From: Escherichia coli
GTDB lineage: Bacteria > Pseudomonadota > Gammaproteobacteria > Enterobacterales > Enterobacteriaceae
Strand: one strand, 5' to 3'
DNA: 64,000 bases
Assembly (NCBI RefSeq): GCF_029227855.1
Contig: NZ_CP074356.1
Position 1 is the first letter of the stretch. Each line of letters opens with the position of its first letter. Below the pieces are notes generated by a model, which was given only the letters and a program-made list of their open reading frames with translations, was not told the origin of the DNA and did no database searches. Both the position numbers and the translations under genes were made by a program. Positions 301 through 17,572 of this stretch are shown piece after piece.

Positions 301-612
301 GACTTATCCATCGGTCAAGGGAAGAACTCCACCTCAGAGACTCAAAAATCGTTTAAATAATGTGGAAGCGATCGTCAATGTCACCTGTAACGATGGGCTT
401 TCTCATATGTACACCATAGTGTTCAGGAGACGCGGAAAGGTACCAGGCAGCCTGCTAACGAGTGGTTTATTCACGAATTAGTACGTAAAATCGGTAACGG
501 CTGGAAATCATTCAATACTCACACTATCGAAAGTTCCCCAGCCAACCGCGGTACGTTCTTACATACGATGTACCGCTGTTCTCTTTACGATTTATAGCTG
601 TACTGGTGAATT

Positions 613-942
613 ATGAGCAATCTGAATCCATGCATGACGTGTGGTGCCTGTTGTGCATTTTTCCGCGTCTCTTTTTACTGGGCCGAAGCCGACGATGCTG
701 GCGGTACCATTCCCGCCAGGCTCACTGAACAAATATCCCCTTTTCACCGATGCATGAGCGGTACCAATCAGAAAAACCCCCGATGTATTGCCCTTGCAGG
801 AACACCGGGCAAAAATGCCTGCTGCACGATATATAAAAATCGATCGTCCACGTGCAGAGAATTCGCCATGTCTGGTGAGAACGGAGTCGTCAATGAGGCT
901 TGCAATCGTGCAAGAGCTAAATACGGGCTGACACCGTTATAA
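613..942 (+). CDS. ykgJ: Cys-rich zinc/iron-chelating domain protein YkgJ (UPF0153 family)
   Basis: 109 aa; cysteine cluster [10 protein letters not shown] plus downstream Cys pairs; position between ecp and yagU. Confidence 0.75.
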
Positions 943-1146
943 ATATGCAATAATTAATTGCACTGCCCCGCCAGCTATAATCGCGGGGCTTCGTTTTTCA
1001 GGGATAACAAAACCCGAAACTTCTTCCATCTGCCAGCAACAATGCCTCTTCCTCTATAGTGTTCTCCGGATCTACAGCATCCTGAAGTAGCGCGATGTAC
1101 TCACGGGCTATCTGCTTCAGAAAGTAAAAAGCAATGTTTTTAACCT

Positions 1147-1180
1147 ATAAAAATGGCGCTGCATTTGCGCCATTTTTATT
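1147..1180. terminator. Bidirectional intrinsic terminator between convergent ykgJ and yagU
   Basis: Hairpin AAATGGCGC-loop-GCGCCATTT flanked by A-run and T-run. Confidence 0.5.
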
Positions 1181-1190
1181 ATTCAATGCA

Positions 1191-1805
1191 TTATCTGTTT
1201 GAGCCTAAAGGGATCTCAGGGTCTGGCTCATGAGTAATTCTGTTTCGTAAATCTCTGCGAATAATTTCAATGGACCAGAACCAGACTAAATGTCCAAAAA
1301 TTTCAGAAACATTCTCATACCACGGGAGATCAAACAGAGGTGGCGTCAGTCCCATGAGAGGGAATGAAATCATATGAACAAAAAGTTGGGCTAAAGCACC
1401 TGCCAGTAAGCCCTGCCAGAGTTTAATTTTTGGAAATACTTCAGCGACCACACAATAACCGACAGCAAACACTATCGAAAAGATAATGTGCGTAACACCA
1501 ACCCAGTTAAAGACATGCCCGGCAAAGGTATAAACAGCCGCATTGGGATCTGTCAGCCCCAACCAGTCTCGAAGAAAAATATACGGAGGATTGAGAAAAT
1601 TACGGGAGCAATCAATTTGCCCAGCAGCCCTGATTAATGATTCCGGGCCACACGCTGCATTAAACATATCCACCGGGCTACGTGGCGGCAATGGAACTTC
1701 AGCCCCCCACTTCACAAATGCGGAAACAACGCCAGCAATCAGCCCAATGAATGCAGCAAGACCATAACGTCTGCGGTTCGGTGGAGTTTGTTCAAATATA
1801 TTCAT
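1191..1805 (-). CDS. yagU: Inner membrane protein YagU (DUF1440 family)
   Basis: 204 aa hydrophobic protein; conserved position next to paoA. Confidence 0.75.
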
Positions 1806-2210
1806 ATCTACCCTGCTTGTACCATTATGTTATACACCTCTTCAGGAGTATTCATAAAATAAGACAAATGTAAAGAACTGTATTGTTTTGTATAATGCAA
1901 TGGTGACTAATCGCCAATGAATATAAGCACCATCATTTCTCCCTATTTTTATATTAAAAGTGACAACGATTTACAGGGTGATGCTGAGCTGACAATCACA
2001 GGTTTCCTTATCGGTTTTTGCATCGCACAACTAAAGCAATAAACTAGCTCCCGTCATCGGCGAATATGAATTAATTAGCCGGGCTCATAGCTGCATTCGC
2101 GTTTTAAGAATAATCCTCCTGCTCTCACCGACTATGCTTAACGTTTAAAAAAGCATCAGCACTCTCGCAACGCACTCTTATTTTCCCCTTTAGAATACCG
2201 GAGGCCTGGT

Positions 2211-2900
2211 ATGAGCAACCAAGGCGAATACCCCGAAGATAATCGGGTTGGGAAGCACGAGCCGCACGATTTTAGTTTGACCCGTCGCGATCTGATTAAA
2301 GTCAGCGCCGCAACGGCGGCGACCGCCGTGGTTTATCCTCATTCTACGCTTGCGGCAAGCGTTCCGGCAGCTACACCCGCGCCAGAGATAATGCCCCTGA
2401 CACTTAAGGTGAACGGCAAAACCGAGCAGTTGGACGTTGATACCCGAACCACGCTACTGGACGCTTTGCGTGAAAATCTGCATCTGATCGGTACCAAGAA
2501 AGGTTGCGATCACGGACAGTGCGGAGCCTGTACCGTGCTGGTCAATGGTCGAAGGCTTAATGCCTGCCTGACGCTTGCAGTCATGCATCAGGGGGCCGAG
2601 ATCACCACCATTGAAGGCCTGGGTTCACCAGACCATCTTCATCCTATGCAGGCGGCCTTTATCAGACATGATGGCTTCCAGTGCGGCTACTGCACCTCCG
2701 GGCAAATTTGCTCATCAGTAGCGGTGCTAAAAGAGATTCAGGACGGCATTCCCAGTCACGTCACGGTCGATTTGGTTTCCCCTCCAGAAAGAACTGCCGA
2801 TGAGATCCGTGAACGTATGAGCGGCAACATCTGTCGCTGTGGTGCATACGCTAACATCCTTGCCGCCATTGAAGACGCTGCGGGGGAGATAAAATCATGA
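2211..2900 (+). CDS. paoA: Periplasmic aldehyde oxidoreductase, 2Fe-2S ferredoxin subunit PaoA
   Basis: 229 aa; twin-arginine signal LTRRDLIK; two 2Fe-2S Cys clusters ([16 protein letters not shown]...CRCG). Confidence 0.9.
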
Positions 2901-3853
2901 AGGCGTTTACCTATGAACGTGTGAACACCCCTGCCGAGGCGGCACTTAGTGCTCAGCGCGTACCCGGCGCAAAATTTATCGCGGGCGGGACCAATCTGCT
3001 GGACCTGATGAAGCTGGAAATTGAAACGCCCACCCACCTTATCGATGTGAACGGGCTCGGGCTCGATAAGATTGAAGTGACCGACGCGGGTGGGCTGCGC
3101 ATCGGCGCACTGGTACGGAACACCGACCTGGCGGCTCACGAGCGCGTGCGTCGTGATTATGCGGTACTCTCCCGCGCCCTGCTCGCTGGCGCGTCTGGTC
3201 AGTTACGTAATCAGGCAACCACCGCAGGTAATCTGCTCCAGCGCACGCGCTGCCCCTATTTTTACGACACCAATCAGCCCTGCAATAAGCGCCTGCCCGG
3301 GAGCGGCTGCGCGGCACTTGAAGGCTTTAGCCGTCAGCACGCGGTGGTAGGCGTAAGCGAAGCCTGCATTGCCACCCATCCGAGCGATATGGCGGTCGCA
3401 ATGCGGTTGCTGGATGCGGTAGTGGAAACCATCACGCCGGAGGGAAAGACTCGCAGTATCACACTGGCTGATTTTTATCACCCTCCGGGAAAAACGCCGC
3501 ACATTGAAACCGCCCTGCTTCCCGGTGAGCTTATCGTTGCGGTGGCATTACCTCCGCCGCTCGGCGGAAAACATATCTACCGCAAGGTGCGCGATCGCGC
3601 CTCCTACGCCTTTGCCCTGGTATCGGTCGCGGCGATTATTCAGCCTGACGGCAGCGGGCGCGTCGCGCTGGGCGGAGTAGCACATAAGCCCTGGCGCATT
3701 GAGGCTGCGGATGCTCAGCTATCCCAGGGGGCGCAGGCCGTGTATGACGCGCTGTTCGCCAGCGCCCATCCCACCGCTGAAAACACCTTTAAACTCCTGT
3801 TGGCGAAGCGAACGCTTGCCTCCGTACTGGCTGAAGCGAGGGCACTGGCATGA
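2897..3853 (+). CDS. paoB: Periplasmic aldehyde oxidoreductase, FAD-binding subunit PaoB
   Basis: 318 aa; FAD-binding fold motif [11 protein letters not shown]; 4-nt overlap with paoA. Confidence 0.9.
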
Positions 3854-6048
3854 AATTTGATAAACCCGCAGGGGAAAACCCGATCGATCAGCTGAAGGTT
3901 GTCGGTCGTCCCCATGACCGCATCGACGGACCGCTGAAAACTACCGGCACGGCACGCTACGCCTACGAATGGCATGAAGAAGCCCCCAACGCCGCCTATG
4001 GTTATATCGTCAGTTCCGCCATTGCCAAAGGACGCCTCACCGCCCTTGATACGGACGCCGCGCAAAAAGCGCCGGGCGTACTGGCTGTCATTACCGCCAG
4101 TAACGCTGGGGCACTCGGCAAAGGCGACAAAAACACCGCCAGGCTGTTAGGCGGCCCCACTATTGAGCACTATCATCAGGCCATTGCGCTGGTAGTGGCT
4201 GAGACCTTCGAACAGGCGCGAGCGGCGGCCTCGCTGGTGCAGGCGCACTATCGCCGTAATAAAGGAGCTTACTCCCTGGCGGACGAGAAACAGGCCGTCA
4301 GTCAGCCGCCGGAAGACACGCCCGATAAAAATGTTGGTGACTTTGACGGGGCTTTCACCTCCGCTGCGGTAAAGATTGATGCTACCTACACGACCCCGGA
4401 CCAGAGCCATATGGCGATGGAGCCGCATGCCTCGATGGCCGTCTGGGATGGGAATAAGCTTACCCTCTGGACCTCAAATCAGATGATTGACTGGTGCCGC
4501 ACCGATCTGGCAAAAACGCTGAAAGTGCCCGTGGAGAATGTGCGTATTATCTCCCCGTATATCGGCGGAGGGTTTGGCGGCAAGCTGTTCCTGAGAAGCG
4601 ATGCGCTGCTGGCGGCCCTCGCCGCCCGTGCGGTGAAACGTCCGGTTAAAGTGATGCTCCCCCGCCCCACTATTCCCAATAACACCACGCACCGCCCCGC
4701 CACCCTTCAGCACCTGCGTATCGGTGCCGACCAGAGCGGGAAAATCACCGCTATCTCACATGAAAGCTGGTCCGGAAACCTGCCCGGCGGCACGCCGGAA
4801 ACGGCGGTACAGCAAAGCGAATTACTCTACGCAGGGGCAAACCGTCATACAGGCCTGCGGCTCGCCACGCTTGATTTGCCGGAAGGGAACGCCATGCGTG
4901 CGCCCGGCGAAGCCCCCGGTCTGATGGCGCTCGAAATCGCGATCGATGAACTGGCGGAAAAAGCGGGCATCGATCCCGTCGAGTTTCGCATCCTGAATGA
5001 CACTCAGGTTGACCCCGCCGATCCGACGCGCCGCTTCTCTCGCCGTCAGCTTATCGAGTGCTTGCGCACCGGAGCGGATAAATTTGGCTGGAAGCAGCGC
5101 AACGCCACACCCGGACAGGTGCGCGACGGGGAGTGGCTAGTCGGCCACGGCGTCGCAGCGGGCTTTCGCAATAATCTGCTGGAAAAATCGGGTGCGCGGG
5201 TTCATCTCGAACAAAACAGCACCGTTACCGTGGAAACGGACATGACCGATATTGGCACTGGCAGCTACACCATTCTGGCCCAGACGGCAGCGGAAATGCT
5301 TGGCGTACCGCTGGAGCAGGTTGCGGTTCACCTCGGCGATTCCAGTTTCCCGGTTTCTGCGGGGTCTGGTGGACAATGGGGCGCGAATACCTCCACCTCC
5401 GGCGTTTACGCCGCCTGTGTGAAGCTTCGCGAAATGATTGCCTCGGCAGTCGGGTTTGATCCTGAGCAGTCGCAGTTTGCCGACGGCAAGATTACCAACG
5501 GTACCCGAAGCGCCACGCTACGTGAGGCCACCGCAGGCGGTAGACTGACAGCGGAAGAGAGCATTGAATTCGGAACACTGAGCAAGGAGTACCAGCAATC
5601 GACCTTTGCCGGGCATTTTGTGGAGGTCAGCGTGCATAGCGCGACGGGAGAAGTTCGGGTCCGACGTATGCTCGCCGTGTGCGCAGCGGGGCGCATTCTG
5701 AATCCGAAAACCGCACGCAGCCAGGTCATTGGCGCAATGACTATGGGCATGGGCGCGGCACTGATGGAGGAGCTGGCGGTAGATGACCGTTTGGGCTACT
5801 TCGTTAATCACGATATGGCGGGGTATGAGGTGCCGATTCATGCGGATATCCCAAAACAGGAGGTGATTTTCCTGGATGATACCGACCCCATCTCCTCCCC
5901 GATGAAGGCCAAAGGTGTCGGTGAGCTGGGCCTGTGCGGCGTGAGCGCGGCTATCGCCAACGCGGTGTATAACGCCACCGGTATTCGGGTACGGGATTAT
6001 CCCATCACTCTGGATAAGCTGCTCGATAAACTGCCGGATGTGGTTTAA
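3850..6048 (+). CDS. paoC: Periplasmic aldehyde oxidoreductase, molybdopterin-binding subunit PaoC
   Basis: 732 aa xanthine dehydrogenase-family Mo subunit; coupled to paoB. Confidence 0.9.
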
Positions 6049-6057
6049 GGAGGAACA

Positions 6058-7014
6058 ATGTCATACTCGCTTTTTGACAAAGACGAGCACTGGCATAAGC
6101 CAGAGCAGGCGTTTCTCACCGATGACCACCGGACCATTCTGCGCTTCGCCGTAGAGGCGCTAATGTCCGGTAAAGGAGCGGTGCTGGTGACGCTGGTGGA
6201 GATACGCGGCGGCGCGGCGCGCCCGCTCGGGGCGCAGATGGTGGTGCGCGAAGATGGTCGTTACTGCGGTTTTGTCTCTGGCGGCTGCGTGGAGGCCGCT
6301 GCCGCTTTTGAAGCGCTGGAGATGATGGGCTCAGGCCGCGATCGCGAAATTCGCTATGGTGAAGGTTCGCCGTGGTTTGACATCGTTCTGCCCTGCGGCG
6401 GTGGGATCACGCTGACGCTCCATAAACTACGCTCGGCACAGCCTCTGCTCGCCGTGCTGAACCGCCTGGAACAGAGAAAACCGGCGGGTCTGCGCTACGA
6501 TCCGCAAGCTCAATCGCTGGTGTGCCTGCCCACGCAAACCCGGACGGGCTGGAATCTCAATGGCTTTGAGGTGGGGTTCAGACCATGCGTCAGTCTGATG
6601 ATTTACGGACGTTCTCTTGAGGCGCAGGCAACCGCGAGTCTTGCAGCAGCCACAGGCTATGACAGCCATATCTTCGATCTTTTTCCGGCCTCAGCCAGCG
6701 CTCAGATCGATACCGATACGGCGGTCATTTTGCTGTGCCATGATCTCAACCGGGAGCTGCCAGTGTTGCAGGCCGCGCGAGAGGCAAAACCCTTTTATCT
6801 CGGCGCATTGGGCAGCTATCGAACCCACACTTTACGTCTGCAAAAGCTCCACGAGCTGGGATGGTCCAGGGAGGAGACAGCGCAAATCCGGGCACCCGTC
6901 GGGATATTCCCCAAAGCCCGGGATGCGCATACTCTGGCACTCTCCGTGCTGGCAGAAGTCGCCTCTGTACGTCTCCATCAGGAGGAGGATTCATGCCTGC
7001 CCCCGTCGTCCTGA
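6058..7014 (+). CDS. paoD: Molybdenum cofactor insertion chaperone PaoD (XdhC family)
   Basis: 318 aa XdhC/CoxI-like protein directly after paoC. Confidence 0.85.
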   Translation: MSYSLFDKDEHWHKPEQAFLTDDHRTILRFAVEALMSGKGAVLVTLVEIRGGAARPLGAQMVVREDGRYCGFVSGGCVEAAAAFEALEMMGSGRDREIRYGEGSPWFDIVLPCGGGITLTLHKLRSAQPLLAVLNRLEQRKPAGLRYDPQAQSLVCLPTQTRTGWNLNGFEVGFRPCVSLMIYGRSLEAQATASLAAATGYDSHIFDLFPASASAQIDTDTAVILLCHDLNRELPVLQAAREAKPFYLGALGSYRTHTLRLQKLHELGWSREETAQIRAPVGIFPKARDAHTLALSVLAEVASVRLHQEEDSCLPPSS

Positions 7015-7094
7015 TCCTTGCGGCCGGGCGTGGAGAGCGCTTTCTCGCCTCCGGGGGAAATACCCATAAATTAAGAGAAAAATCTGCAGTAGCC
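7005..7094 (+). pseudogene. 5' remnant of a MobA/MocA-like nucleotidyltransferase gene (about 28 codons), coupled to the paoD stop
   Basis: ATG overlapping the paoD end encodes MPAPVVLILAAGRGERFLASGGNTHKL (ILAAGxGxR NTP-transferase motif); similarity then stops and the frame runs into the 3' end of the opposite-strand transporter gene. Confidence 0.4.
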
Positions 7095-7193
7095 GTTTTA
7101 GAAAATCACCTAAATCGTTTAAAAGAGCACCCAACCCATAGTGGGCGCTCATCGCCTTGTGTAACTTATTCAGCAACGCGCGCCCTCGCCGGA

Positions 7194-8387
7194 CTAAAGC
7201 GCACCGGCCTTCTGGCGTGCGGTAACAAAGGTCAGTACGCCAGCGCAAAGGAGCAGCACGCTACTCATAGCAAACGTGCTCTGCCAGCCAAGGCGGTCAA
7301 ATACGATGCCTCCTGCTGTTGATCCAAGGGCGATGGAGAGCTGAATCACCGCGACCATGAGCCCGCCTCCGGCTTCGGCGTTGTCAGGCAACGTACGCGC
7401 AATCCATGTCCACCATCCGGTTGGCGCGGCGGTGGCCAGCATGCCCCAGAGTCCTAACAGCAGCGAGACCGTCCAGACGTGATGCCCGGTCAGCATCAGA
7501 CCGATAGCAATGACGGCCATCAGTCCGGGTATGGCCATCAGCGTGGGGTAGAATTTTCTGTTGAGAAATGCCGAAACAACCAGCGTGCCAATAAAACCGG
7601 CCACGCCGATAATCAGCAAAATCAACGACAAGCCTAAGGAATTAACCCGTGTCACCGACTCCAGAAACGGGCGCACATAGGTGAATAGTGCAAACTGCCC
7701 CATGAAAAACAGGCAGCAGGCTATCATGCCGACCACAACCATGCGGCGGCTAAATAAGCGGAATACCGCGCCACATGAAGTGTGGCTTTTATTCGCATCC
7801 ATGCTTGGCAGGCTGATGCACTGCCAGATAAAGGCGACAACCGCGATGGGCACCAGGCACAAGAAAGCGCCTCGCCATCCGACCGTAGCCCCCAGATAGC
7901 TTCCCAGCGGTGCGGCCACGACCGTCGCCAGCGCATTACCGGCGTTGAAAATTGCCAGCGCACGCGTGACCTGATGCTGCGGCACCAGACGAATCGCCGT
8001 TGCCGCTGACATCGACCAGAATCCGCCAATAGCCACACCAATCATCGCACGACCGACCATATACATCAGATAACTGGAAGCCAGCGCAATAATAAGCCCC
8101 GATACGGCCATCAGAACCGTCATCCCCAGCAGCAGGAACTTACGATTCATCTTTCCAGCTAGCGTTGAAAGCGTCAGGCTGGTCAGAACCGCCAGCGCGC
8201 CGGAGATAGCAATCCCCTGCCCTGCCAGCCCCTCCGTCACGCCTAAATCGCGGGTAATCGGCGTGAGCAGGCTGACGGGCATAAATTCAGAAGCAATCAG
8301 CACAAACACGCACAGGGTCATGGCAAAAATACCGCCCCAGTATGCGCGCTGATGATGAGGTGATAGTGTTTGGCTTAGTGTCGACAT
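7194..8387 (-). CDS. Major facilitator superfamily transporter (12 predicted TM helices)
   Basis: 397 aa, hydrophobic throughout with MFS-like glycine-rich loops. Confidence 0.7.
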   Translation of the reverse strand: MSTLSQTLSPHHQRAYWGGIFAMTLCVFVLIASEFMPVSLLTPITRDLGVTEGLAGQGIAISGALAVLTSLTLSTLAGKMNRKFLLLGMTVLMAVSGLIIALASSYLMYMVGRAMIGVAIGGFWSMSAATAIRLVPQHQVTRALAIFNAGNALATVVAAPLGSYLGATVGWRGAFLCLVPIAVVAFIWQCISLPSMDANKSHTSCGAVFRLFSRRMVVVGMIACCLFFMGQFALFTYVRPFLESVTRVNSLGLSLILLIIGVAGFIGTLVVSAFLNRKFYPTLMAIPGLMAVIAIGLMLTGHHVWTVSLLLGLWGMLATAAPTGWWTWIARTLPDNAEAGGGLMVAVIQLSIALGSTAGGIVFDRLGWQSTFAMSSVLLLCAGVLTFVTARQKAGAL

Positions 8388-8462
8388 AGTGAAATTTCAC
8401 AAAGATCAGGATAAAAGCCACCAGCCTATGGCCGGTGGCTTTGCATCAATTCAGGAGAGGTT

Positions 8463-9620
8463 TTATTTCAGTTTGGTCTGGAAAAATTGTTCGAACTTCG
8501 CGAAAGGTATTTTTCCGGCCACGTTATCGTACAGGTCCACGTGATTTGCCCCTGGTACCACCACCAACTCTTTGTCTTTACTGCCAACCGCCTTGTAAGC
8601 ATCTTCAGCAAAATAGCGTGAATGTGCTTTCTCACCGGTCACAATCAGCGTCGGAATGGTGATTTCACTGGCGTAGCTCAACAGCGGCATATTCATAAAT
8701 GACAGCGGCATCGTTGCCGTCCACGCCCCGGTAGAGTTAACGGAACGTTCGTGGAAGCCGCGCGGCATGCGATAGTAGTCAAAGAACTCTTTCAGTACCG
8801 GATGAGGATTTGCCGGCAGCGTTTCTGGCAGAATGCGCTCGCCCGCACTGACCTTGCCGTTGCTGTCGACATTAATATCATGACCACCGTGAGCGAACGT
8901 TCCGCTCTGCGCATCCTTCCAGCGCTGTTCATTCAGATATTGCAGAACAGCACGACGGTCGGCGGTAGAATAACGGTCTTTGCCATCCCCCACACCATGG
9001 CCCATCGCCCGGCTCATGTCATACATCACGCTGGTAGCTACCGCTTTAACGCGGGTATCCATCGCCGCGTCGTTCAGCGCCATGCCGCCCCAGCCACAAA
9101 TACCGAGCAGCCCGATACGGTTGCGATCTACCTCTTTTTGCAGCCCTAAGAAATCCACTGCCGCGCTGAAATCTTCAGTGTTGATATCCGGTGAGGCGAC
9201 GTTTCGCGGATAGCCGCCGCTTTCCCCGGTGTAAGAAGGATCGAACGCCAGGGTAACAAACCCTCGTTCCGCCAGCGTCTGCGCATACAGGCCGCTGGAT
9301 TGCTCTTTCACCGCGCCAAATGACCCACTGACCGCAATCGCCGCCAGCTTGCGATCGCCACGGTCTTTAGGCAGGTAAAGATCGCCCACTAAGGTGATGC
9401 CATATCGGTTCGGGAACGAGACTTTACGGTGATCGACTTTCTGGCTCTCGGCGAACGTTTTATCCCATTTATCTGTCATGGACACAGGGGCATTAGGATT
9501 GGTTGAATCAGCATAACTCATTGTCGTGACTCCACTTAATGATGCGAAAAGCAGCATGGTCGGCATCGCGGTTTTTAGCGTGCGGGTGAAGGCTTTCATA
9601 AAAATCCCCATAAAAAACAA
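8463..9620 (-). CDS. Secreted alpha/beta-fold hydrolase; alternative start at 9599 (MKAF...)
   Basis: 385 aa; N-terminal signal peptide; nucleophile-elbow-like motif GICGWGG; upstream of the MFS gene on the same strand. Confidence 0.55.
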   Translation of the reverse strand: MFFMGIFMKAFTRTLKTAMPTMLLFASLSGVTTMSYADSTNPNAPVSMTDKWDKTFAESQKVDHRKVSFPNRYGITLVGDLYLPKDRGDRKLAAIAVSGSFGAVKEQSSGLYAQTLAERGFVTLAFDPSYTGESGGYPRNVASPDINTEDFSAAVDFLGLQKEVDRNRIGLLGICGWGGMALNDAAMDTRVKAVATSVMYDMSRAMGHGVGDGKDRYSTADRRAVLQYLNEQRWKDAQSGTFAHGGHDINVDSNGKVSAGERILPETLPANPHPVLKEFFDYYRMPRGFHERSVNSTGAWTATMPLSFMNMPLLSYASEITIPTLIVTGEKAHSRYFAEDAYKAVGSKDKELVVVPGANHVDLYDNVAGKIPFAKFEQFFQTKLK

Positions 9621-9785
9621 CAGAGAGATACAGGTTTCCGACGGACAACGCTGCGGTGCTTTACTTTGATGGGGTCATTATAGTGAGCAGAATTAGTGCT
9701 GATTAGGGGGCGATTAATGCTAAGATTAATACCATATTGTTATAAATTAATGTGGAGATTGCCGGCATGAAGGGGGGATGTTTCA

Positions 9786-10670
9786 ATGGCGAAAAGGGAG
9801 AACTACAACGAGCTGTACCTGTTTATGCAGGTGGTGCGGGAAGGCAGCTTTACCGCAGCGGCTCAGCGGCTGGGTCTTGCTCAGTCAGGAGTCAGCCGTT
9901 CTGTTCGCGAGCTTGAAGAAAGGCTGGGTGTCCAGCTGCTAGTGCGCACCACGCGTAAACTGTCGCTGACACAAGCAGGCGAGCAGCTCTACCAGAAGAC
10001 GGCATCTGGATTTGAAATGTTAGATCTTGGGCTTGCCACGCTGGCGCATTATCGAGAGACGCCCTCCGGCACGGTGCGTATCAATGCCAGCCAGCACGCG
10101 ATTGATAAATGCCTGCTGCCAAAGCTGGCGGTATTTAAACAGAGATATCCTGATATCCGGCTTGAACTGATAAATGAGAGCCGGTTCGTCGATATCATCG
10201 AGGAAAGATTCGATGCAGGTGTCCGCCTGGGGCCTGAAGTCGGCCAGGGTATGGTCGCGGTACGCATCACGCCCGATATGGAGATGGCAATTGTGGGGAC
10301 TCCGGAACATTTTCGTCGCTATGGTTTTCCGCAAACCCCGGCGGATTTAAAGGCGCATCCCTGTATCGCCTATCAGTTTGCCGACGGCAGCGTATACCAG
10401 TGGGAACTCAATCAGGATGATAAAAAAATCACTCATCGCCCTGAAGGGCAATGGGCCCTATCCGACAGCTATATGGAAGCAGAAGCCGCCCGGCTGGGCC
10501 TCGGATTGGCCTATGTTCCTGTTGAACTGGTCGCGGATGATTTAGAACACGGTAAGCTTATCAGGGTGTTGCAGCGTTACAGCCTGCGAATGGAGGGATT
10601 GTTTCTCTATTACCCTCATCGCAACGTCTCCCCCGCCCTGCGGATGGTCATTGATACATTGAAAATCTGA
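9786..10670 (+). CDS. LysR-family transcriptional regulator
   Basis: 294 aa; N-terminal HTH (FTAAAQRLGLAQSGVSRSVRELEERLGVQLL); divergent from the hydrolase-MFS pair. Confidence 0.85.
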   Translation: MAKRENYNELYLFMQVVREGSFTAAAQRLGLAQSGVSRSVRELEERLGVQLLVRTTRKLSLTQAGEQLYQKTASGFEMLDLGLATLAHYRETPSGTVRINASQHAIDKCLLPKLAVFKQRYPDIRLELINESRFVDIIEERFDAGVRLGPEVGQGMVAVRITPDMEMAIVGTPEHFRRYGFPQTPADLKAHPCIAYQFADGSVYQWELNQDDKKITHRPEGQWALSDSYMEAEAARLGLGLAYVPVELVADDLEHGKLIRVLQRYSLRMEGLFLYYPHRNVSPALRMVIDTLKI

Positions 10671-11103
10671 ACGTTAACAACGACCGACTCTTCACTGTGC
10701 AAAATTGTGTCAGGTAGTCCCTCTGCGTTCAATTCCAGGGTCTGCTTTGAGCGAGAAAGAGGGGACTATCCAGCAATGGAGATCACCCAAAAGAAAAAAC
10801 CACCTGGCTCCCTCGACAACCTTCATCCGGGCATTTAGCCTCAATCAACATTTTTATATCTGTCAGGTTACTTCATTATGAAAACTGATCATCATCGTTG
10901 TTTTTGTTGCAATAGTAGAATACGCGTATTTATTCCTCCATCTCTATTAATAACGGCAATAAACTGTTCACTTCACTGATATTTAAAATATGTATCCTTT
11001 TCAAGCTGTTCAGCGGCGTAAGAAAAAGTATTAATTATGAATTCGATGATTTAACCATATCTGTCTGATTGGTAATCATCCGTGATTAATGCTGGTCTAT
11101 TGA

Positions 11104-12024
11104 TTACGCCAGAACCCTCTCTAGCTTATTCACCGCCGCCACATACTTCGCCGGATTTTTATCTTTAAGCACCGCCAGATTGCGTTGCTTCCAGCGAATA
11201 GCCGGAAGATGCTGAATTTCAGGATAGCGATACCGCGACCAGTCAGGGCTGTTTTGCTTAAAACTGAGCAAGAACTCGCGATCCAGATCCGTAAGATGTG
11301 ACTTCAACGCCTGCGGCAGCAAAGTCGTTACTGACAGAAGCGATTCCAGCGACGTTTCCTGTTGCGTCATCCCTGAAAATTCCTGCGCGTACAACGTGGC
11401 GATCCGCTCTGTATCCCAGTTTGGAGCCAGCAACTCGGCGATGGGGCGGGGATGGCCTGCCAGATAACAAAGAAAACCGTCAAAGATCTCCCGCATCAGT
11501 CCCGGTTTCTCCAGCATATTCAGCACATCAAACAGATCGCGCGGGTGCTGACGATCAAGCGCAGCGCAGATTTTACCGCCATAAAGATCCGCCAGCGAGA
11601 CGACACTCATGGTGGTGAAGCCATACTCCATTTCCACACGTTCGCACACAGGCATTTCTGCCGGAGGCAACAACAGCCCGCGCCAGACCGGGCTAACCTC
11701 GATCTTAATCTTTGCATCAGCGGTATTCACAATGATGCGCTTTTCATCCGCTTTATTTTCCTGCCGAATCGCGGTGATCCCCGGTCTGCCGTTCAGCGAT
11801 GCAGTAATCCTCTTCAAAGCGTCGTTGATAGCCGCCAAATCAGTATCGCGATCCGCAAAGCTCTTGTACGCCAGATCAATATCCACCGACAGACGGGGAA
11901 AATCCTGCACAAACAAATTGATTGCGGTGCCGCCTTTCAACGCGAAACAGGACTCCTTCGCCACATACGGCAGAGCGGCCATCAACAGTTTGACCTGCCG
12001 GGCATAGCTATCACGCAGATCCAT
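11104..12024 (-). CDS. abiEii: AbiEii-type nucleotidyltransferase toxin (DUF1814 family)
   Basis: 306 aa; NTase motif GGTAINLF...RLSVDIDL; 14-nt overlap with upstream partner. Confidence 0.7.
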   Translation of the reverse strand: MDLRDSYARQVKLLMAALPYVAKESCFALKGGTAINLFVQDFPRLSVDIDLAYKSFADRDTDLAAINDALKRITASLNGRPGITAIRQENKADEKRIIVNTADAKIKIEVSPVWRGLLLPPAEMPVCERVEMEYGFTTMSVVSLADLYGGKICAALDRQHPRDLFDVLNMLEKPGLMREIFDGFLCYLAGHPRPIAELLAPNWDTERIATLYAQEFSGMTQQETSLESLLSVTTLLPQALKSHLTDLDREFLLSFKQNSPDWSRYRYPEIQHLPAIRWKQRNLAVLKDKNPAKYVAAVNKLERVLA

Positions 12025-12814
12025 CTTCGACTCCTTCCGGTTTAAATGCGCGTGGAACAGTAATTTGATAATCCGGCTCCAGCCAGCCGCCGGGTATGAT
12101 TTGCCGCTTTCCCGTACCTGTTTCTATACCGCTTTGATCAATATACTGAAAATAAGGGTGTCCATTACGCCGGGCAAGGTAAAGCATCACCCGGTTGGTT
12201 TTAACCGAATGGCTGGCGCGAAGCAGTGCCTGCAATTTGCGTGGGCTGAGAAGATTCAACCCCTGAAACAGAGCATCGGCATGTTCGAACGAGATTAACG
12301 AAGGAACGCCGCAGGCGATCTCATACGCGGCCAGTTCCGGAACACTGCCTGCTAACTGGCGGTCGCCAATTTTCAGTTCCGTAGTAAATGGCGTTACATC
12401 AGCGGTAAGGCCTGACGTATACAGCGTGACAAACGTTGCGGATTGTTCAAAGGCAGAAAACCATCCCGGCAGTTTGACGTAAGCCGGAAGCGCGAGCCAG
12501 ACCTGCGGCTTACCCTGTTCGGTATAGTGCGCATGACCCTGAAGCGCAAGGCTGGTTAGCCCCGCCACCCGAACAGGCTTTTCCCACTGCGATTGCAGGC
12601 AGTAAACCGCATCCACCCAATCCGGTTCACGACCCGTCCGGCAGTATACGCCGTGAGCGATCCGCCTGAGCCAGCCATTCTTCACATAGAGATAAGAGAG
12701 CTTACGATCTATGCCGTTGCGGGTAAGCCATGACTGGAGCAGCACCTGGCCGGGTAGCGTGTGCTGCATCAGCCAGTTTAGATAGTTTGGCAACTGTCGC
12801 CTCTGAATAGACAT
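12011..12814 (-). CDS. abiEi: AbiEi-type antitoxin / transcriptional regulator
   Basis: 267 aa; sits immediately upstream of and overlapping the NTase gene, the usual AbiE arrangement. Confidence 0.6.
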   Translation of the reverse strand: MSIQRRQLPNYLNWLMQHTLPGQVLLQSWLTRNGIDRKLSYLYVKNGWLRRIAHGVYCRTGREPDWVDAVYCLQSQWEKPVRVAGLTSLALQGHAHYTEQGKPQVWLALPAYVKLPGWFSAFEQSATFVTLYTSGLTADVTPFTTELKIGDRQLAGSVPELAAYEIACGVPSLISFEHADALFQGLNLLSPRKLQALLRASHSVKTNRVMLYLARRNGHPYFQYIDQSGIETGTGKRQIIPGGWLEPDYQITVPRAFKPEGVEDGSA

Positions 12815-13108: not shown

Positions 13109-14884
13109 ATGACATATCAGGCAATTTTCACTGGCTGGGATGATCTGACGATTGAAGACCTTCTGGTCGCTTACCGGAAAGCAAAAGCCGATAGCTTCTT
13201 TGAGAATACATTTCCTGTTGCTATCAAATTTGCCGAGTATGAGCAGGAATTACTTGAAAACCTGCAAAAACTCTTAGATCTTTTGCAGAGCGAAGATGGA
13301 TTCAGTAGCAATAAGAAGTTGATTGGCAAATTTCGTTTGTTACCGAAAAAATTAACCACAAAGAAAAAACATGAATCCCAAAATGGACACGTCCACTTTT
13401 CTAATCCTAAACGAGCAGCCGACCATTTATTTAATAATTTTGATCTGATACCAGAGTTTCGTATTATTGGTGACTTCCCGGTTGATAGTCACATTATCTC
13501 TGCACTATGGATTAACATGGTCGGGCATAAATTTGATGCCAGCTTAGATAACTGTTGCTATGGCGCGCGGCTAAAGCGTATTCGTAATGATGAATTATTT
13601 AGCGATGAGCAGGATAATCCATTCCATATCAGTGCCGTGGGTTCTTTTAGCCCCTACTTCCAGCCCTACCAAAAATGGCGTGGTGATGGCTTAAAAGCTA
13701 TACGTGACGAGTTGGAAAAAGATCGTGACATTATCGCCGCCTCACTGGATTTAAAAAGTTACTATCATTTTATTGATCCACTGGCTATAACCTCTGATGA
13801 TCTCTATAACACACTAAACATAAAACTGACTGAGGATGAAAAAGCGTTTACTGCACAGTTAGCAGTATTCTTAAAGCACTGGTCTGACGGCGCAGCGGCA
13901 TTTGGAAAGAAAATAGCGTACAAAACACCTGTTATTAATGGTGGTCTGGTCATTGGATTAACAGCCAGTCGGATCATTTCAAATATATTGCTACACCATT
14001 GGGATAAATTAGTCATTGAAAAACTATCACCAATTCACTACGGTCGTTATGTCGATGATATGTTCCTTGTAATACGCGATACAGGGACAATTACTAATAA
14101 TCACGAATTTATGTTATTGCTGCAAGATAGGCTTGGCAATGATTGCGTTTATTTGAAAAACGAGCAAAAACAAATATGGCAAATACAGCAGGGCGAGCAT
14201 TTCCAGGGTAAGACCACCATCCAGTTACAATCCGATAAGCAAAAACTTTTCGTGCTTCAAGGGAGGGCTGGAATAGACCTGCTCGACAGTATCGAAAAGG
14301 AGATCTACGAGCTTTCTAGTGAACACCGCTTGATGCCTTCACCGGATCAACTGGAACACTCCACCGCAGCTAAAGTCCTTTCCGCTGCCGGTAGTGTAGG
14401 TGAAAATGCCGATACTCTGCGCCGTGCGGATGGATTAACCATTCGTCGTTTGGGCTGGTCACTGCAATTACGCTACGTTGAAACACTGGCACGAGATCTG
14501 CCTCCAAGTGAATGGAAAGAACAGCGGGAAGAGTTTTATCAGTTTGCCTACAACCATATTCTTAGGGCTGATAATCTATTTGCACATTTTAGTTATCTGC
14601 CAAGGCTGCTTGGCTTTGCTATCAGTATGAATGAATGGCAGCACGCGGAAAAAATTGTACTTAAAGCTTACGAATCCATCAACCTGTTGGCATCGGTGAT
14701 TACTTCAGGTAAGGAAGTGAATATAAATGGTTGCAAAACTCGAGCAGTAAATGATCTTTGGCGCTGTATAAAAGGCACATTAAGCTGGCTATTTGTTGAT
14801 GCAGCGACACGATATTACAGTCCTGACAGATTATTTCTTGATAAACGTTCAAAGAAAGAAGAGTGCCTTGCGGATACATTTTAA
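13109..14884 (+). CDS. Reverse transcriptase (UG/Abi-type defence RT); likely the N-terminal part of an RT-nitrilase fusion interrupted at a T4 tract
   Basis: 591 aa; RT motifs in order: FRLLPKK (motif 1), LDLKSYYHFID (A), GGLVIGLTASRIISNIL (B'), YGRYVDDMFLV (C, YxDD); stop codon TAA begins inside TTTT at 14879-14882. Confidence 0.8.
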   Translation: MTYQAIFTGWDDLTIEDLLVAYRKAKADSFFENTFPVAIKFAEYEQELLENLQKLLDLLQSEDGFSSNKKLIGKFRLLPKKLTTKKKHESQNGHVHFSNPKRAADHLFNNFDLIPEFRIIGDFPVDSHIISALWINMVGHKFDASLDNCCYGARLKRIRNDELFSDEQDNPFHISAVGSFSPYFQPYQKWRGDGLKAIRDELEKDRDIIAASLDLKSYYHFIDPLAITSDDLYNTLNIKLTEDEKAFTAQLAVFLKHWSDGAAAFGKKIAYKTPVINGGLVIGLTASRIISNILLHHWDKLVIEKLSPIHYGRYVDDMFLVIRDTGTITNNHEFMLLLQDRLGNDCVYLKNEQKQIWQIQQGEHFQGKTTIQLQSDKQKLFVLQGRAGIDLLDSIEKEIYELSSEHRLMPSPDQLEHSTAAKVLSAAGSVGENADTLRRADGLTIRRLGWSLQLRYVETLARDLPPSEWKEQREEFYQFAYNHILRADNLFAHFSYLPRLLGFAISMNEWQHAEKIVLKAYESINLLASVITSGKEVNINGCKTRAVNDLWRCIKGTLSWLFVDAATRYYSPDRLFLDKRSKKEECLADTF

Positions 14885-16316
14885 TCATATTTCACAAAGT
14901 CTGACGAATCTAAAGGATTTACTGGATCTTCGCTTTGATTCAGCAGATTTTTATTTAAAAGCGCCATTGGTAGCTCGAGCTGATTTAGCAAAGGAACCTT
15001 ATAAACAGATCGTAAAGAGTCAGTCGGCAGAAAAACTTGTTAATCAGCGTGATAGTAAAAAAGAAGTTAAAATACTGAAATTAATGAGCGACTCATCGCT
15101 TATTGATATTGACGTTATTAAGCTATTTTTGAAATCAACCAAGAATACCCGACTGGAAAAAGTGGCTAAAGGAAATCGTAAGAACGAAAGTTACCTACCT
15201 TACATTTTCCCTACACGTCCTTTAACACCCGCTGAAATATCAGAACTGGCCCCCGAATGTGTTGGATTACCCTCCACATCCGACAAAAAACCAGATGAGA
15301 GACCGTCCACCATTTGGGCAAAATATACTCAAGCATTACGCGGAGTATGGATCAAACCGACGTTGCTAGCATCGGAGCAGGACTCAGATGAAGCGACAAA
15401 AAAAGCTCGGCCTAAGAAATTCATTCATATTGGCACAGACAGGAAACATAAAGTTGTCGTTGCGCTAACCAGCATTAAAACAGAGGAGGACGACTGGGCT
15501 AAAATGGCCTGCAATAAATCTAACTTGTCCCGTTCAAGGTACCAGCGGATTTCTGAACTGGTTAATGCAACATTGAAACTATCTCCTAAACCTGATTATG
15601 TTTTATTCCCTGAGCTTTCAATCCCGTTACGCTGGGTTAACAGTATTGCTGATCGTTTGAGTTCGGCGGGTATCAGTCTAATTGCGGGAACAGAATACCG
15701 CCACTTAGACGATAATCAACTGAAGAGTGAGGCCGTACTTGTCCTTTCAGATAACAGACTCGGCTATCCAGCGAGTGTCAAAATATGGCAACCCAAGCTG
15801 GAACCCGCCGTAGGTGAAGATGAGGCATTATTTTCAACTTATGGTAAGTCTTGGGATTCGACACTTAATGTTAAACAACGTAAGCCGGTATATATTCATC
15901 ACGGCGTCAATTTTGGCGTTATGATTTGCTCTGAACTCCAGAATAGTAAAGCGAGGATCCGTTTTCAGGGCGCACTCGATGCATTAATGGTATTGAGCTG
16001 GAATAAAGATCTAGATACGTTTGCATCGTTGATTGAATCAGCAGCGCTGGATATTCATGCCTATACTATTTTAGTGAATAACCGAAAATACGGCGATAGT
16101 CGCGTACGTTCCCCGGCAAAAGAACCCTTTATGCGTGATATTGCTCGTGTGAAGGGCGGTGATAATGACTTTGTGGTCGCTGCAACGCTGGATATCGACT
16201 CGTTAAGGGCATTTCAGAGCAGGGCAAAACGCTGGCCTAAAGGCGGCGATAAATTCAAACCGTTACCTGAAGGATTCCAGTTGGCAAAGAACCGCAAAAA
16301 GCTACCGCCAAAATAA
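14793..16316 (+). CDS. Nitrilase / CN-hydrolase domain protein; probable C-terminal part of the RT-nitrilase protein (frame +1 relative to the RT ORF)
   Basis: 507 aa as called (TTG start, no convincing RBS); nitrilase-like triad context YVLFPELSIP (Glu), VKIWQPK (Lys), GVMICSELQN (Cys); overlaps RT ORF by 92 nt. Confidence 0.75.
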   Translation: MLMQRHDITVLTDYFLINVQRKKSALRIHFNHISQSLTNLKDLLDLRFDSADFYLKAPLVARADLAKEPYKQIVKSQSAEKLVNQRDSKKEVKILKLMSDSSLIDIDVIKLFLKSTKNTRLEKVAKGNRKNESYLPYIFPTRPLTPAEISELAPECVGLPSTSDKKPDERPSTIWAKYTQALRGVWIKPTLLASEQDSDEATKKARPKKFIHIGTDRKHKVVVALTSIKTEEDDWAKMACNKSNLSRSRYQRISELVNATLKLSPKPDYVLFPELSIPLRWVNSIADRLSSAGISLIAGTEYRHLDDNQLKSEAVLVLSDNRLGYPASVKIWQPKLEPAVGEDEALFSTYGKSWDSTLNVKQRKPVYIHHGVNFGVMICSELQNSKARIRFQGALDALMVLSWNKDLDTFASLIESAALDIHAYTILVNNRKYGDSRVRSPAKEPFMRDIARVKGGDNDFVVAATLDIDSLRAFQSRAKRWPKGGDKFKPLPEGFQLAKNRKKLPPK

Positions 16317-16478
16317 GAAACTGATTTTCGCTATTAATAATCAGGGTATTTTTGCGTGAGATGTCGGTAAACATGATGTAGCCCTTGCCACTCATGACCA
16401 ATCGCAGTATCTTTCTCCCGCGCCTGCAAAATCAGGCGTCGGGATTAGCCTCCTGAAGAAATCTTATCGGCGACACAT

Positions 16479-16500
16479 GACGCGCCAGCGTCTTTTTTTG
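16479..16500 (+). terminator. Possible intrinsic terminator downstream of the nitrilase ORF
   Basis: Short GC hairpin GACGC-GCCA-GCGTC followed by T7. Confidence 0.3.
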
Positions 16501-16662
16501 TGTTGTTCGCACGGTTACATCTCAATGGTGGGCCGGGCGGGGGCGTCGCAAGACGCGCCAGTGTCCGATAAGGCTGGTAAGGCTAACCCTGCCCGGTTCC
16601 ACCACCCGCGAGATTAGCCTCTCCGGTGGTGGCTTGAACACCCACTTATCGGAGGTTGCCCT

Positions 16663-17133
16663 ATGGCTACAATCCTCACCACTGACAGCGATTTACTCGA
16701 TCTATTGACCGTCCCCTTCAATGCCACCACGGATTTCACTGTCCTTGCTGACTACTGCGCCCGCTTTGCCGAAACCCTGATTGAAACCGACGATCCAGCG
16801 CTACGACTGGCGCTCTGCGGGCGGCTTCACGCGGCTCTTGCGCTACTGCAACCCACACTACACGACCCCATCCCACCGCATCTTACCGAAAGCCTGACCG
16901 TGGATACCCTTCCCGCCACACCAGAGCACTTTATTTCCGAACCTGATTCCTTGTGCGAATACTGCCTCGCACTACTCCAGCTTCTGCTGGAACGTCCGGC
17001 GGAACCAAAAATGGAGCAAACCCTGACCGGGCTGCTGTGTGAGCTGGTCTGGTATTTCACGGAAGGACTCAAAGCCCCACGCTGGCTGCGTACCGCCGAC
17101 GGCGTAAAATTTATCAGCGAGGTGGCCGCATGA
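16663..17133 (+). CDS. Hypothetical protein, no recognisable domain
   Basis: 156 aa ORF with a good RBS (GGAGG); stop overlaps the start of the Ner-like fragment. Confidence 0.5.
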
Positions 17134-17270
17134 TGCAACAGGACTGGCATTCCGCCGACATTATTGCGGTGCTGAAAAAGCGGGGAACGCCTCTGGCGGC
17201 ACAGAGAAAAACTCATTGCGGAAGCGCTGTAAATATCGCCAGAAATCATCTGGCCTTCAAGGTACTTTGA
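17130..17270 (+). pseudogene. Ner/Nlp-like DNA-binding protein gene, internally deleted and frameshifted
   Basis: N-terminus [24 protein letters not shown] is Ner/Nlp-like; similarity then breaks, and a second Ner-like stretch (REKLIAEAL) appears in another frame. Confidence 0.5.
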
Positions 17271-17311
17271 TAGCAAAGGCAAGCAGGCTGGTTCAGTCCA
17301 GTGTTTCTCTT

Positions 17312-17410
17312 CTTGCATTTTCAGAAATGGGAGGCTGGGAGTCTATCGAAATGGTTCGTCGATATGCTCACCTCGCGCCTAATCACCTTACCGAACACGC
17401 ACGGCAAATA
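17312..17410 (+). pseudogene. C-terminal remnant of a tyrosine integrase gene
   Basis: Peptide [30 protein letters not shown] matches the conserved C-terminal region around the catalytic Tyr (RYAHL) of phage integrases; no upstream integrase sequence present. Confidence 0.55.
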
Positions 17411-17496
17411 GACTCAGTCCTGAACCCATCGGTCCCAAATTTGTCCCAGTCAAAAAATAAGGAAGGTACTAATGATGTGTAACTTATTGATTTTAA

Positions 17497-17572
17497 TGGT
17501 GCCGATAAGAGGAGTCGAACCTCCGACCTTCGCATTACGAATGCGCTGCTCTACCAACTGAGCTATATCGGC
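17497..17572 (-). tRNA. thrW: tRNA-Thr, anticodon CGU
   Basis: 76-nt cloverleaf GCCGATATAGCTCAGTTGGTAGAGCAGCGCATTCGTAATGCGAAGGTCGGAGGTTCGACTCCTCTTATCGGCACCA with encoded CCA; anticodon loop CATTCGTAATG. Confidence 0.9.

Follow-up and report, generated by a model that had tools for sequence, protein, structure and literature searches.

A conserved gene behind a P4/P1-type antisense RNA leader in islands of Enterobacterales

The thrW region of Escherichia coli raises the question of what an open reading frame (ORF) of 156 codons is doing between a reverse transcriptase (RT)-nitrilase gene and a Ner-like fragment, and whether it belongs to the defense locus on its left or to the decayed mobile element on its right. 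We addressed this question in a 64,000-nucleotide (nt) stretch of E. coli DNA (contig NZ_CP074356.1 of assembly GCF_029227855.1; hereafter the window), in which this frame, ORF156, occupies positions 16663-17133 of the plus strand, encodes 156 amino acids (aa), and is annotated in RefSeq as a 'hypothetical protein' (WP_000201185.1). We use ORF156 for the window copy and ORF153 family for its homologs in other loci. Overall, the analysis leads us to regard ORF156 as probably a backbone gene of an island family of Enterobacterales, neither a defense accessory nor cargo, that would be gated by an antisense RNA and would act in an adaptor-like manner; it is the first protein gene behind a leader that encodes IsrK- and C4-type RNAs.

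Consistent with the first-pass annotation of this DNA, which had reported a good ribosome-binding site, an ATGA coupling to the next frame, and no recognizable domain, a Shine-Dalgarno (SD) sequence GGAGG (16651-16655) lies seven bases 5' of the ORF156 ATG, the TGA of ORF156 (17131-17133) overlaps the ATG (17130-17132) of the 46-codon Ner-like frame, and domain and profile searches of Pfam, NCBIfam, PHROGs, and PADLOC returned no match. A word-indexed search found 646 homologs of 140-166 aa, all annotated 'hypothetical', in Escherichia, Salmonella, Klebsiella, Enterobacter, Dickeya, Pectobacterium, Brenneria, and other Enterobacterales; a profile search of 1.84 billion representatives gave 228 homolog clusters, and the exact ORF156 sequence is present on at least 1000 contigs. 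In the literature we found no description of the ORF153 family. The frame is intact in 77 of 77 loci with an assignable start codon (140-166 aa), the SD sequence and start codon are conserved in an alignment of 71 upstream sequences (A3), and the ratio of nonsynonymous to synonymous substitution rates (dN/dS) has a pairwise median of 0.23 in the family and ranged from 0.08 to 0.24 across comparisons. Compared with a second allele found at thrW, ORF156 shows 28 synonymous and 9 nonsynonymous differences (dN/dS 0.10). These features argue, with high confidence, that ORF156 is a real conserved gene. The AlphaFold2 model of the protein (predicted local distance difference test 82.5; predicted template modeling score (pTM) 0.77) has four long helices followed by a C-terminal β-hairpin, and the protein carries a net charge of -14 (isoelectric point (pI) 4.4), acidity being a uniform trait of its family (net charge -6 to -17). 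The closest structures were generic helical bundles only, and structure searches gave no match to Ocr, ArdA, or other mimics. ORF156 is thus predicted to be a soluble acidic four-helix bundle without a catalytic motif.

We then compared the DNA around the gene in 80 ORF-centered loci, namely the window itself and 79 loci sampled from a single genome of each species, each with 10-kb flanks. The loci were seeded by ORF homology via two peptide patterns; the genome scan used an alignment of close relatives (A1), because a broader alignment (A2) had no conserved stretch, and is hence biased toward Enterobacterales. The region immediately 5' of ORF156 contains an antisense RNA leader that the first-pass annotation had missed, all parts of which lie on the plus strand. 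It begins with a σ70-like promoter (TTGCCA-17-TATCTT, 16385-16413), a consensus match that is the only promoter-like site within 16250-17500 and the positional equivalent of P4 PLE, and from which the leader/ORF156 transcript would start; its -10 and -35 elements fall in conserved columns of A3. An IsrK/P4 seqA-like leader RNA follows at 16420-16498 (Rfam RF01394, 68.8 bits against a gathering threshold of 50), ending in a terminator hairpin (16479-16492) with a T-run. Behind it, at 16521-16609, lies a C4/P4 CI-type antisense RNA that matches the full length of RF01695 with 71.1 bits (gathering threshold 45); the CI RNA of P4 itself scores 74.9 bits with the same model. The single-stranded segments of this RNA, b' (UCCGAUAAG, 16564-16572) and a' (AGGCUAA, 16580-16586), have complementary partners on both sides. 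The upstream target region (16407-16470) holds a1 (TTAGCCT, 16445-16451) and b1 (CTTATCGG, 16463-16470), and its match to the Rfam family c4-a1b1 at 16407-16459 is just under threshold in the window (43.8 bits vs. a gathering value of 46.7) and exceeds it in relatives. The downstream targets (16614-16655) are a2 (TTAGCCT, 16614-16620) and b2 (CUUAUCGGA, 16645-16653), the latter covering the first three bases of the SD sequence. As judged by nhmmer, the complete IsrK-C4 leader lies directly 5' of the ORF in 66 of the 80 loci.

The complementarity between C4 and its targets is maintained across the family. In A3, which comprises 71 distinct upstream regions aligned with MAFFT without any structure fitting, 95.5% of cells are paired between a'/b' and a2/b2, with 215 cells changed on both sides, in 12 of the 16 pairs; between a'/b' and a1/b1, 98.8% of cells are paired and 227 are changed on both sides. 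Sliding the partner by 1-3 columns reduced pairing to 26-48% (a2/b2) and 25-45% (a1/b1), and none of 500 shuffles reached the observed values; kinship among the sequences inflates the shuffle statistics, and the slid controls are low nonetheless. The b2 pairs next to the SD sequence are conserved as well, and the relatives carry at least 40 distinct a'/b' combinations. Pairing of a C4-type RNA at the ORF156 ribosome-binding site is therefore strongly supported by comparative evidence, and from the occlusion of the SD sequence and the P1 and P4 precedents (PMC8198154, PMC4825925) we infer that this pairing represses ORF156. In the mechanism we propose, the two exposed segments of the processed C4 RNA would pair with a1/b1 and a2/b2 of their own transcript. 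Because b2 covers the start of the SD sequence, this pairing would prevent translation of ORF156, and through coupling also that of the Ner-like gene, and/or terminate transcription, so that ORF156 protein would be made only once C4 control is overcome. Different a'/b' variants would represent different immunity specificities. The base-pairing model makes precise predictions on compensatory changes at b'/b2, and at least 40 orthogonal natural RNA specificities may be on offer.

Two further observations concern this control region. An alternative partner, GGTGGTGG (16625-16632), is available to the 3' arm of the C4 outer stem (CCACCACC, 16600-16607), and this second pairing would place a2 in a hairpin loop; by eye, the two arms co-vary in A3 (CCGCCACC with GGTGGCGG), and a structural switch at 16600-16632 is possible. 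In three loci (L017, L026, and L057; L-numbers denote individual loci), two of them with intact modules, ORF153 has an N-terminal extension and a different 5' region without IsrK/C4 similarity, and these loci may use an alternative control region.

The leader also accounts for an annotated gene. A 46-codon 'ash family protein' ORF (PF10554-like; plus strand, 16477-16617) called by the annotation pipeline PGAP overlaps the C4 RNA and matches PHROG 'regulator' families. All 'Ash' or 'Phage_ASH' fusions to ORF153 homologs arise from gene calls extending across the RNA leader, and we rejected such fusions as informative architectures for this reason. The window ORF is probably a gene-calling artifact, at most a counterpart of orf45 of Gifsy-1, a short ORF in the equivalent place that can be translated (PMC4825925). 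More generally, the RefSeq 'ash family protein' (PF10554) coding sequences at such loci are likely to be translations of a mis-annotated RNA gene.

Which known systems does this arrangement resemble? IsrK corresponds to P4 seqA and C4 to the P4 CI RNA (PMC4825925, PMC3632133), and the P4 immunity region (PLE, seqA/IsrK, CI RNA, seqC, epsilon, orf151, orf106, alpha) shares with the window the order isrK-then-C4, the Rfam families, and an antisense RNA that pairs both 5' and 3' of itself on one transcript (PMC4825925). Relatives of the window locus likewise carry a P4-type integrase at a tRNA gene, and distant ORF homologs precede primase/helicase genes as the P4 early genes do. However, epsilon, orf151, and alpha follow the leader in P4, the payload here is unrelated, and close relatives are without the alpha primase, psu, delta, and sid; relative to a P4-like satellite, the integrase at a tRNA is found in relatives and the helper/replication core is not. 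Further, ORF156 starts 54 nt after C4, compared with ∼240 nt in P4, and the downstream target in the window overlaps the SD sequence, as in P1, whereas that of P4 serves as a termination signal only.

The immI region of P1 and P7 (c4, icd, ant1/2) offers the same C4 a'/b' segments, a1/b1 and a2/b2 targets, a downstream pair at the ribosome-binding site of the first gene, and translational coupling to the next gene. Among P1 and P7 c4 genes, different a/b sequences act as immunity specificities. P1 C4 blocks icd/ant, by a mechanism that PMC8198154 cites from Citron & Schuster 1990 and Riedel et al. 1993. The differences are that ORF156 is not homologous to Icd or Ant, that the element is an integrative island and not a plasmid prophage, and that the second, coupled gene encodes a Ner-like repressor here as opposed to an antirepressor in P1. 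In the isrK-orf45-anrP region of Salmonella Gifsy-1 (PMC4825925), an IsrK with a terminator is followed by read-through to a short ORF over the C4-like STnc1160 and by a coupled gene that flips the prophage switch, and the window also has a 46-codon ORF over its C4; IsrK is a trans activator there, however, and the payload AnrP is an antirepressor, whereas ORF156 has no phage homolog apart from one unannotated record. Compared with C4/CI switches as a class, the locus has the C4 fold, IsrK with its terminator, and two-sided complementarity, and it does not have a known antirepressor or replication payload.

The place of ORF156 in its element became apparent from intact relatives (L002-L010, L013, L014, and others). 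These begin with variable cargo, followed by IsrK-C4, ORF153, and a Ner-like gene with the helix-turn-helix (HTH) domain HTH_35, in some cases an inserted toxin-antitoxin (TA) system (MazEF, HigA), an EFASI RNA motif, a tyrosine-recombinase-like PF12835/PF12834 gene, a convergent P4-type integrase, and a tRNA. The order ORF, HTH_35, PF12835, and P4-type integrase is fixed in 22 loci, with the ATGA overlap in 22 of 22. The integrase (Arm-DNA-bind_3 + Phage_int_M + Phage_integrase) lies at a tRNA in at least 22 related loci and is absent from the window, and PF12835 is likewise present in at least 22 loci (E values in relatives: PF12835, 6e-60; PF12834, 3e-38). The HTH_35 partner is full-length in these relatives (E 4e-34; 113 bits with the SfsB model vs. 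a cut-off of 150) and basic (pI 10.1). In the intact islands checked the attachment tRNA is tRNA-Asn or tRNA-Phe, and thrW hosts the decayed window-type locus only. Cargo includes OLD-like and AbiE systems, type I restriction-modification (R-M), Rhs/PAAR effectors, and others, and none of psu, delta, sid, epsilon, and alpha was called in islands of the L002-L014 type. We conclude with high confidence that ORF156 belongs to the island backbone. The alternative reading in the first-pass annotation, cargo of a decayed mobile element, thus holds insofar as ORF156 is a gene of such an element and fails as regards cargo: this conserved gene is part of the backbone and lies where the variable cargo meets the regulatory/mobilization module. 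The landmark 'variable cargo / IsrK-C4-ORF' may accordingly be used to find defense hotspots and to delimit islands.

The mobilization part of these islands resembles that of SGI1 (S022, oriT, sgm-sRNA, mpsA/mpsB). PF12835 is a signature of MpsA-like atypical (MOB_M) relaxases of SGI1-type islands (PMC10484663; bioRxiv 10.64898/2026.01.13.699239), and its location near the integrase in relatives is as in an integrative mobilizable element, the link from PF12835 to MpsA being taken from PMC10484663. In SGI1, S022, oriT, and an essential small RNA (sRNA) lie 5' of mpsA (PMC6414798, PMC9299015). Both modules also have a small ORF farther upstream (S022 in SGI1), on a long primary transcript with a terminator-like element close to its promoter (PMC9299015, PMC6414798, PMC10484663). 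In the islands studied here, EFASI (98-119 bits) was found directly 5' of the PF12835 gene in six of six islands tested (L002 11389-11517, L007 11300-11429, L013 13735-13868, L014 12362-12490, L016 11429-11557, and L025 12115-12248). Rfam lists the function of EFASI as unknown; by analogy with the structured non-coding element before the PF12835 gene of SGI1, it may be an oriT and/or a mobilization sRNA. The likeness is positional, and the SGI1 module has neither a C4 leader nor a Ner-like gene. In the window, the mobilization part of the island has been deleted. On balance, the family looks like an integrative mobilizable island with a P4-type RNA immunity region. As an observation on its mobility, two E. 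coli genomes with islands at tRNA-Asn beside mtfA, L002 and L013, carry the cargo-to-PF12835 block (Rhs/PAAR cargo, C4, ORF153, Ner, EFASI, PF12835) in opposite orientations with respect to the P4-type integrase, which hints that this block can move or invert as a unit.

More distant homologs (36-40% identity) lie in satellite-like elements ordered int, AlpA, and then further genes, in which the ORF comes first or second in an operon leading to primase/helicase genes (DUF927, Toprim_3, AAA_25) and lies beside a divergent small repressor-like gene; such primase/helicase genes are confined to the distant relatives L094, L098, and L100. One of these satellites also carries a ClpP-capsid fusion, and in L094 a divergent small repressor-like gene replaces the C4 leader. 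In two of the three, a small 'transcriptional repressor' PHROG follows the ORF; identification of the small genes 3' of the ORF with epsilon was rejected. The conserved theme appears to be that of the first gene of a switch-controlled early operon, beside a small DNA-binding protein.

What, then, might ORF156 do? In the reading we favor, that of an RNA-gated, adaptor-like backbone gene, ORF156 would occupy the position that C4/CI switches give to an antirepressor-type payload (Icd/Ant in P1, epsilon in P4, and AnrP in Gifsy-1). It would act by binding another protein, and its most plausible target is a basic DNA-binding regulator whose activity it would modulate, the candidates being the co-encoded Ner-like repressor and a host or helper repressor. 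This adaptor guess, which draws on position, coupling, fold class, and charge, is weaker than the case for gating. Acr1 of IncA/C plasmids is a Ner-like HTH_35 autorepressor of transfer activators (PMC4542580), and the full-length HTH_35 partner in intact relatives resembles the Ner/SfsB/Acr1 repressors; this likeness concerns the partner, which is a pseudogene in the window, and not ORF156. For ORF156 itself there is a lead only. In Neisseria, the acidic DNA mimic/adaptor DMP19 is encoded beside a small HTH regulator, NHTF, much as the small, strongly acidic, helical ORF153-family protein is encoded beside, and translated together with, a basic HTH protein; no sequence or structural match of ORF156 to it was found. 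If the favored reading is correct, a 'hypothetical protein' of about a quarter of complete E. coli genomes would be encoded by the first gene under a P4/P1-type antisense RNA switch in a family of tRNA-borne islands with anti-phage cargo.

Several results weigh against this reading. The sign of the regulation is our deduction, and IsrK of Gifsy-1 activates translation and does not repress it (PMC4825925). Comparison of ORF156 with P4 epsilon and ORF151 by hhalign gave a probability of ∼0.1%, i.e. no similarity, and a tblastn search of a phage collection returned as homolog only one unannotated 1.5-kb record. An AlphaFold2 model of ORF156 fused to Ner by a linker reached a pTM of 0.47 and showed no confident complex, a weak result given a shallow alignment and no predicted aligned error. 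In 39 loci the ORF is alone yet under purifying selection, and there is therefore no strict need of a co-encoded Ner; the L068 ortholog has lost its C4 gene and is still conserved. Acidity alone is weak evidence. Finally, the loci were sampled by ORF homology, with one genome per species and 10-kb flanks.

The persistence of stand-alone copies is not explained by a switch component and therefore motivates the alternative that fares best, although we consider it unlikely: C4 RNA and ORF156 would form a self-contained module in which the protein is the effector of an addiction or exclusion device, one that harms the cell or an incoming element upon failure of C4 control, and the RNA acts as its antidote or gate. 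Such a two-part module would explain why the pair outlived the rest of the island. The Ner gene is absent from 44 of the 80 loci, 34 of which keep the complete leader, and 39 of the 41 Ner-less loci that could be analyzed have no residual homology to the downstream module, many ORFs being followed by a terminator-like hairpin or a sequence resembling repetitive extragenic palindromes (REP); we therefore rejected the view that most Ner-less loci are products of random decay. Stand-alone orthologs in Leclercia and Silvania share a 2.4-kb flank at 88% identity and have a dN/dS of 0.08 at a synonymous divergence (dS) of 0.73, and the window and the second thrW allele differ with a dN/dS of 0.10 although both share a dead Ner gene. 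Moreover, growth inhibitors such as P1 Icd are among the genes translated first after a C4/CI RNA (PMC8198154). However, a soluble acidic bundle is unlike the small hydrophobic type I toxins, and PADLOC has no match for ORF156. Some conserved copies lack a C4 gene (L068, which has lost most of its leader, L084, and L088); if the protein were a true toxin, the cell could survive this only with the promoter lost as well. Much of the divergence between remnants may be older than the decay of their islands. The locus has the RNA-over-SD arrangement of a type I TA system, in which a cis-encoded antisense RNA blocks translation of the toxin, but its 156-aa product, a soluble acidic bundle, is not a small hydrophobic protein. 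In its more specific form, namely that IsrK/C4 and the ORF153 protein are an autonomous RNA-gated module that Enterobacterales chromosomes repeatedly kept after island decay, we regard the idea as rather doubtful; if it were true, the module, with its dozens of interchangeable a'/b' specificities, could serve as a sensor-effector, and an incoming P4-type satellite, island, or phage that titrates or mismatches the resident C4 would release the ORF153 protein, amounting to a new kind of RNA-specified exclusion, addiction, or defense. Of the leads from this study, the most interesting is that the RNA-plus-protein pair has persisted by itself and under purifying selection at orthologous sites of the chromosome.

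A second alternative, which we judge improbable, is that ORF156 is an establishment or anti-defense protein of a leading region, for example an acidic DNA-mimic inhibitor, directed at restriction or at another DNA-binding protein of the host and made early after conjugative entry. Intact islands carry the MpsA-like PF12835 gene preceded by EFASI, a candidate oriT or sRNA, and if transfer starts at EFASI with the relaxase gene entering last, Ner and ORF156 would enter the recipient first. The vicinity of oriT concentrates defense and counter-defense genes (bioRxiv 10.64898/2026.01.13.699239), S022 of SGI1 lies between the promoter and oriT/sgm-sRNA/mpsA (PMC9299015, PMC6414798), and ORF156 is strongly acidic. 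Yet S022 is dispensable for transfer (PMC6414798), the distant homologs reside in primase/helicase satellites without a relaxase, the structure searches gave no match of ORF156 to Ocr, ArdA, or other mimics, and selected stand-alone chromosomal copies are hard to explain by an entry function.

That ORF156 is an accessory or regulator of RT_UG5-nitrilase (or of AbiE), the other option offered by the first-pass annotation, is highly improbable and refuted by distribution as far as the RT is concerned. ORF156 adjoins the RT on the same strand, and 257 E. coli records with an ORF156 allele of at least 99% identity match the ∼260 RT genomes, essentially all of which carry such an allele. However, the RT copies in these 260 genomes are all at least 99% identical and therefore represent one locus lineage, and ORF156 DNA is about five times more widespread, being present in 1328 of 5426 complete E. 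coli genomes compared with 260 of 5426 for the RT. A further 545 records with an ORF allele in the 90-95% identity band form the second thrW allele group, and in strain p4A (L012, the only locus of this group inspected; ORF allele 92.1% identical) type I R-M replaces the RT between AbiE and the leader. The RT is carried by two of the 80 ORF-centered loci, the window and a Serratia island (L029) with AbiE, RT, and then the ORF, and in none of four RT-centered loci (Citrobacter, Yersinia, Salmonella) is ORF153, a Ner-like gene, or a C4 leader found within 8 kb. RT homologs of 70-76% identity occur in many marine gammaproteobacteria, and the ORF153 family was not found in the non-enterobacterial genera that hold them. 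In addition, PADLOC models RT_UG5-nitrilase as a single-protein system, between the RT and ORF156 lie a promoter and a terminator-containing RNA leader, and the region 5' of the leader is hypervariable: the ORF family adjoins dozens of unrelated cargos, and the commonest recurring upstream family is present in 7 of the 80 loci. The first-pass annotation had named in advance the finding that would speak against a defense accessory, homologs only in island contexts unrelated to RT genes, and this is essentially what we observed. Overall, the results indicate with high confidence that ORF156 is independent of RT_UG5-nitrilase.

Two side observations bear on the RT as cargo. In the Serratia marcescens locus L029, the AbiE/RT cargo is 80-91% identical to that of the window and ORF153 only 60%; cargo appears to be swapped between backbones at the leader boundary. 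In L101/L102 (Citrobacter, Yersinia) and L103/L104 (Salmonella), RT_UG5-nitrilase lies within a conserved cargo block (600-11220) behind type I R-M, a KwaA-like gene, and a 277-aa gene (possibly Kiwa), and this block adjoins a P4-type integrase or sits directly 5' of a PF12835 gene.

The last alternative, a decaying or spurious frame in a dead island remnant, might be suggested by the neighboring pseudogenes (Ner, the integrase scar, and the frameshifted RT) and by an overlapping antisense ORF of 163 aa, but is scarcely tenable for a frame that is intact in 77 of 77 loci, with dN/dS of 0.08-0.24, a conserved SD sequence and start codon, a confident fold, and its sequence on at least 1000 contigs.

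The remainder of the window locus is consistent with extensive decay around an intact leader and ORF156. It is the E. coli thrW region, with the order LysR-family gene, ykgR fragment, AbiEii/AbiEi, RT, ash ORF, and ORF156, then Ner-like fragment, integrase fragment, tRNA-Thr, proA, proB, and phoE. AbiEii (11104-12024) and AbiEi (12011-12814), both on the minus strand, and RT_UG5-nitrilase (plus strand, 13109-16316) constitute variable defense cargo. In the window, a 2-bp (TT) deletion near 14879 splits the RT into ORFs of 591 and 507 aa, and this defense gene is therefore probably inactive; the intact allele (3210 bp, 1069 aa) is apparently present in most of the ∼260 other E. coli carriers, and NZ_AP045174 shows the same split annotation. 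Downstream of ORF156, the Ner-like (HTH_35) gene (plus strand, 17130-17275; PGAP 'frameshifted; incomplete') was recognized as a pseudogene by comparison with its intact counterparts in L014 and L016. The first ∼24 residues of its 46-codon frame match HTH_35/Ner-SfsB (PF13693, E 2.6e-5; NF007670, E 5e-7), the HTH core is missing owing to a 65-bp internal deletion, and a GAA>TAA change has introduced a stop, so that its earlier description as Ner-like stands and the 'fragment' is in fact a pseudogene. The same deletion is present in p4A (L012 12468-12620) together with an ORF allele of 92% identity and a different C4 specificity, and therefore suggests recombination within the locus after the deletion. 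The neighboring integrase remnant (plus strand, 17279-17482; Pfam Phage_integrase positions 137-171) was rejected as the island's own integrase: it is the C-terminus of an integrase of lambdoid/serotype-converting phages of the SfI/SfII/SfIV/SfV type (tblastn 86.6% identity to SfI/SfII/SfIV). It thus stems from a thrW-integrating phage, a mobile element other than that of ORF156, and the thrW locus is therefore composite. The attachment site, tRNA-Thr (thrW), lies at 17500-17572 on the minus strand (Rfam tRNA 71 bits; RefSeq annotation of an identical locus). Only the leader and ORF156 are intact in the window; Ner is dead, and the relaxase and island integrase genes are gone. Far from ORF156, an Rfam match to IS009 (187.8 bits) lies at 985-1185 on the minus strand.

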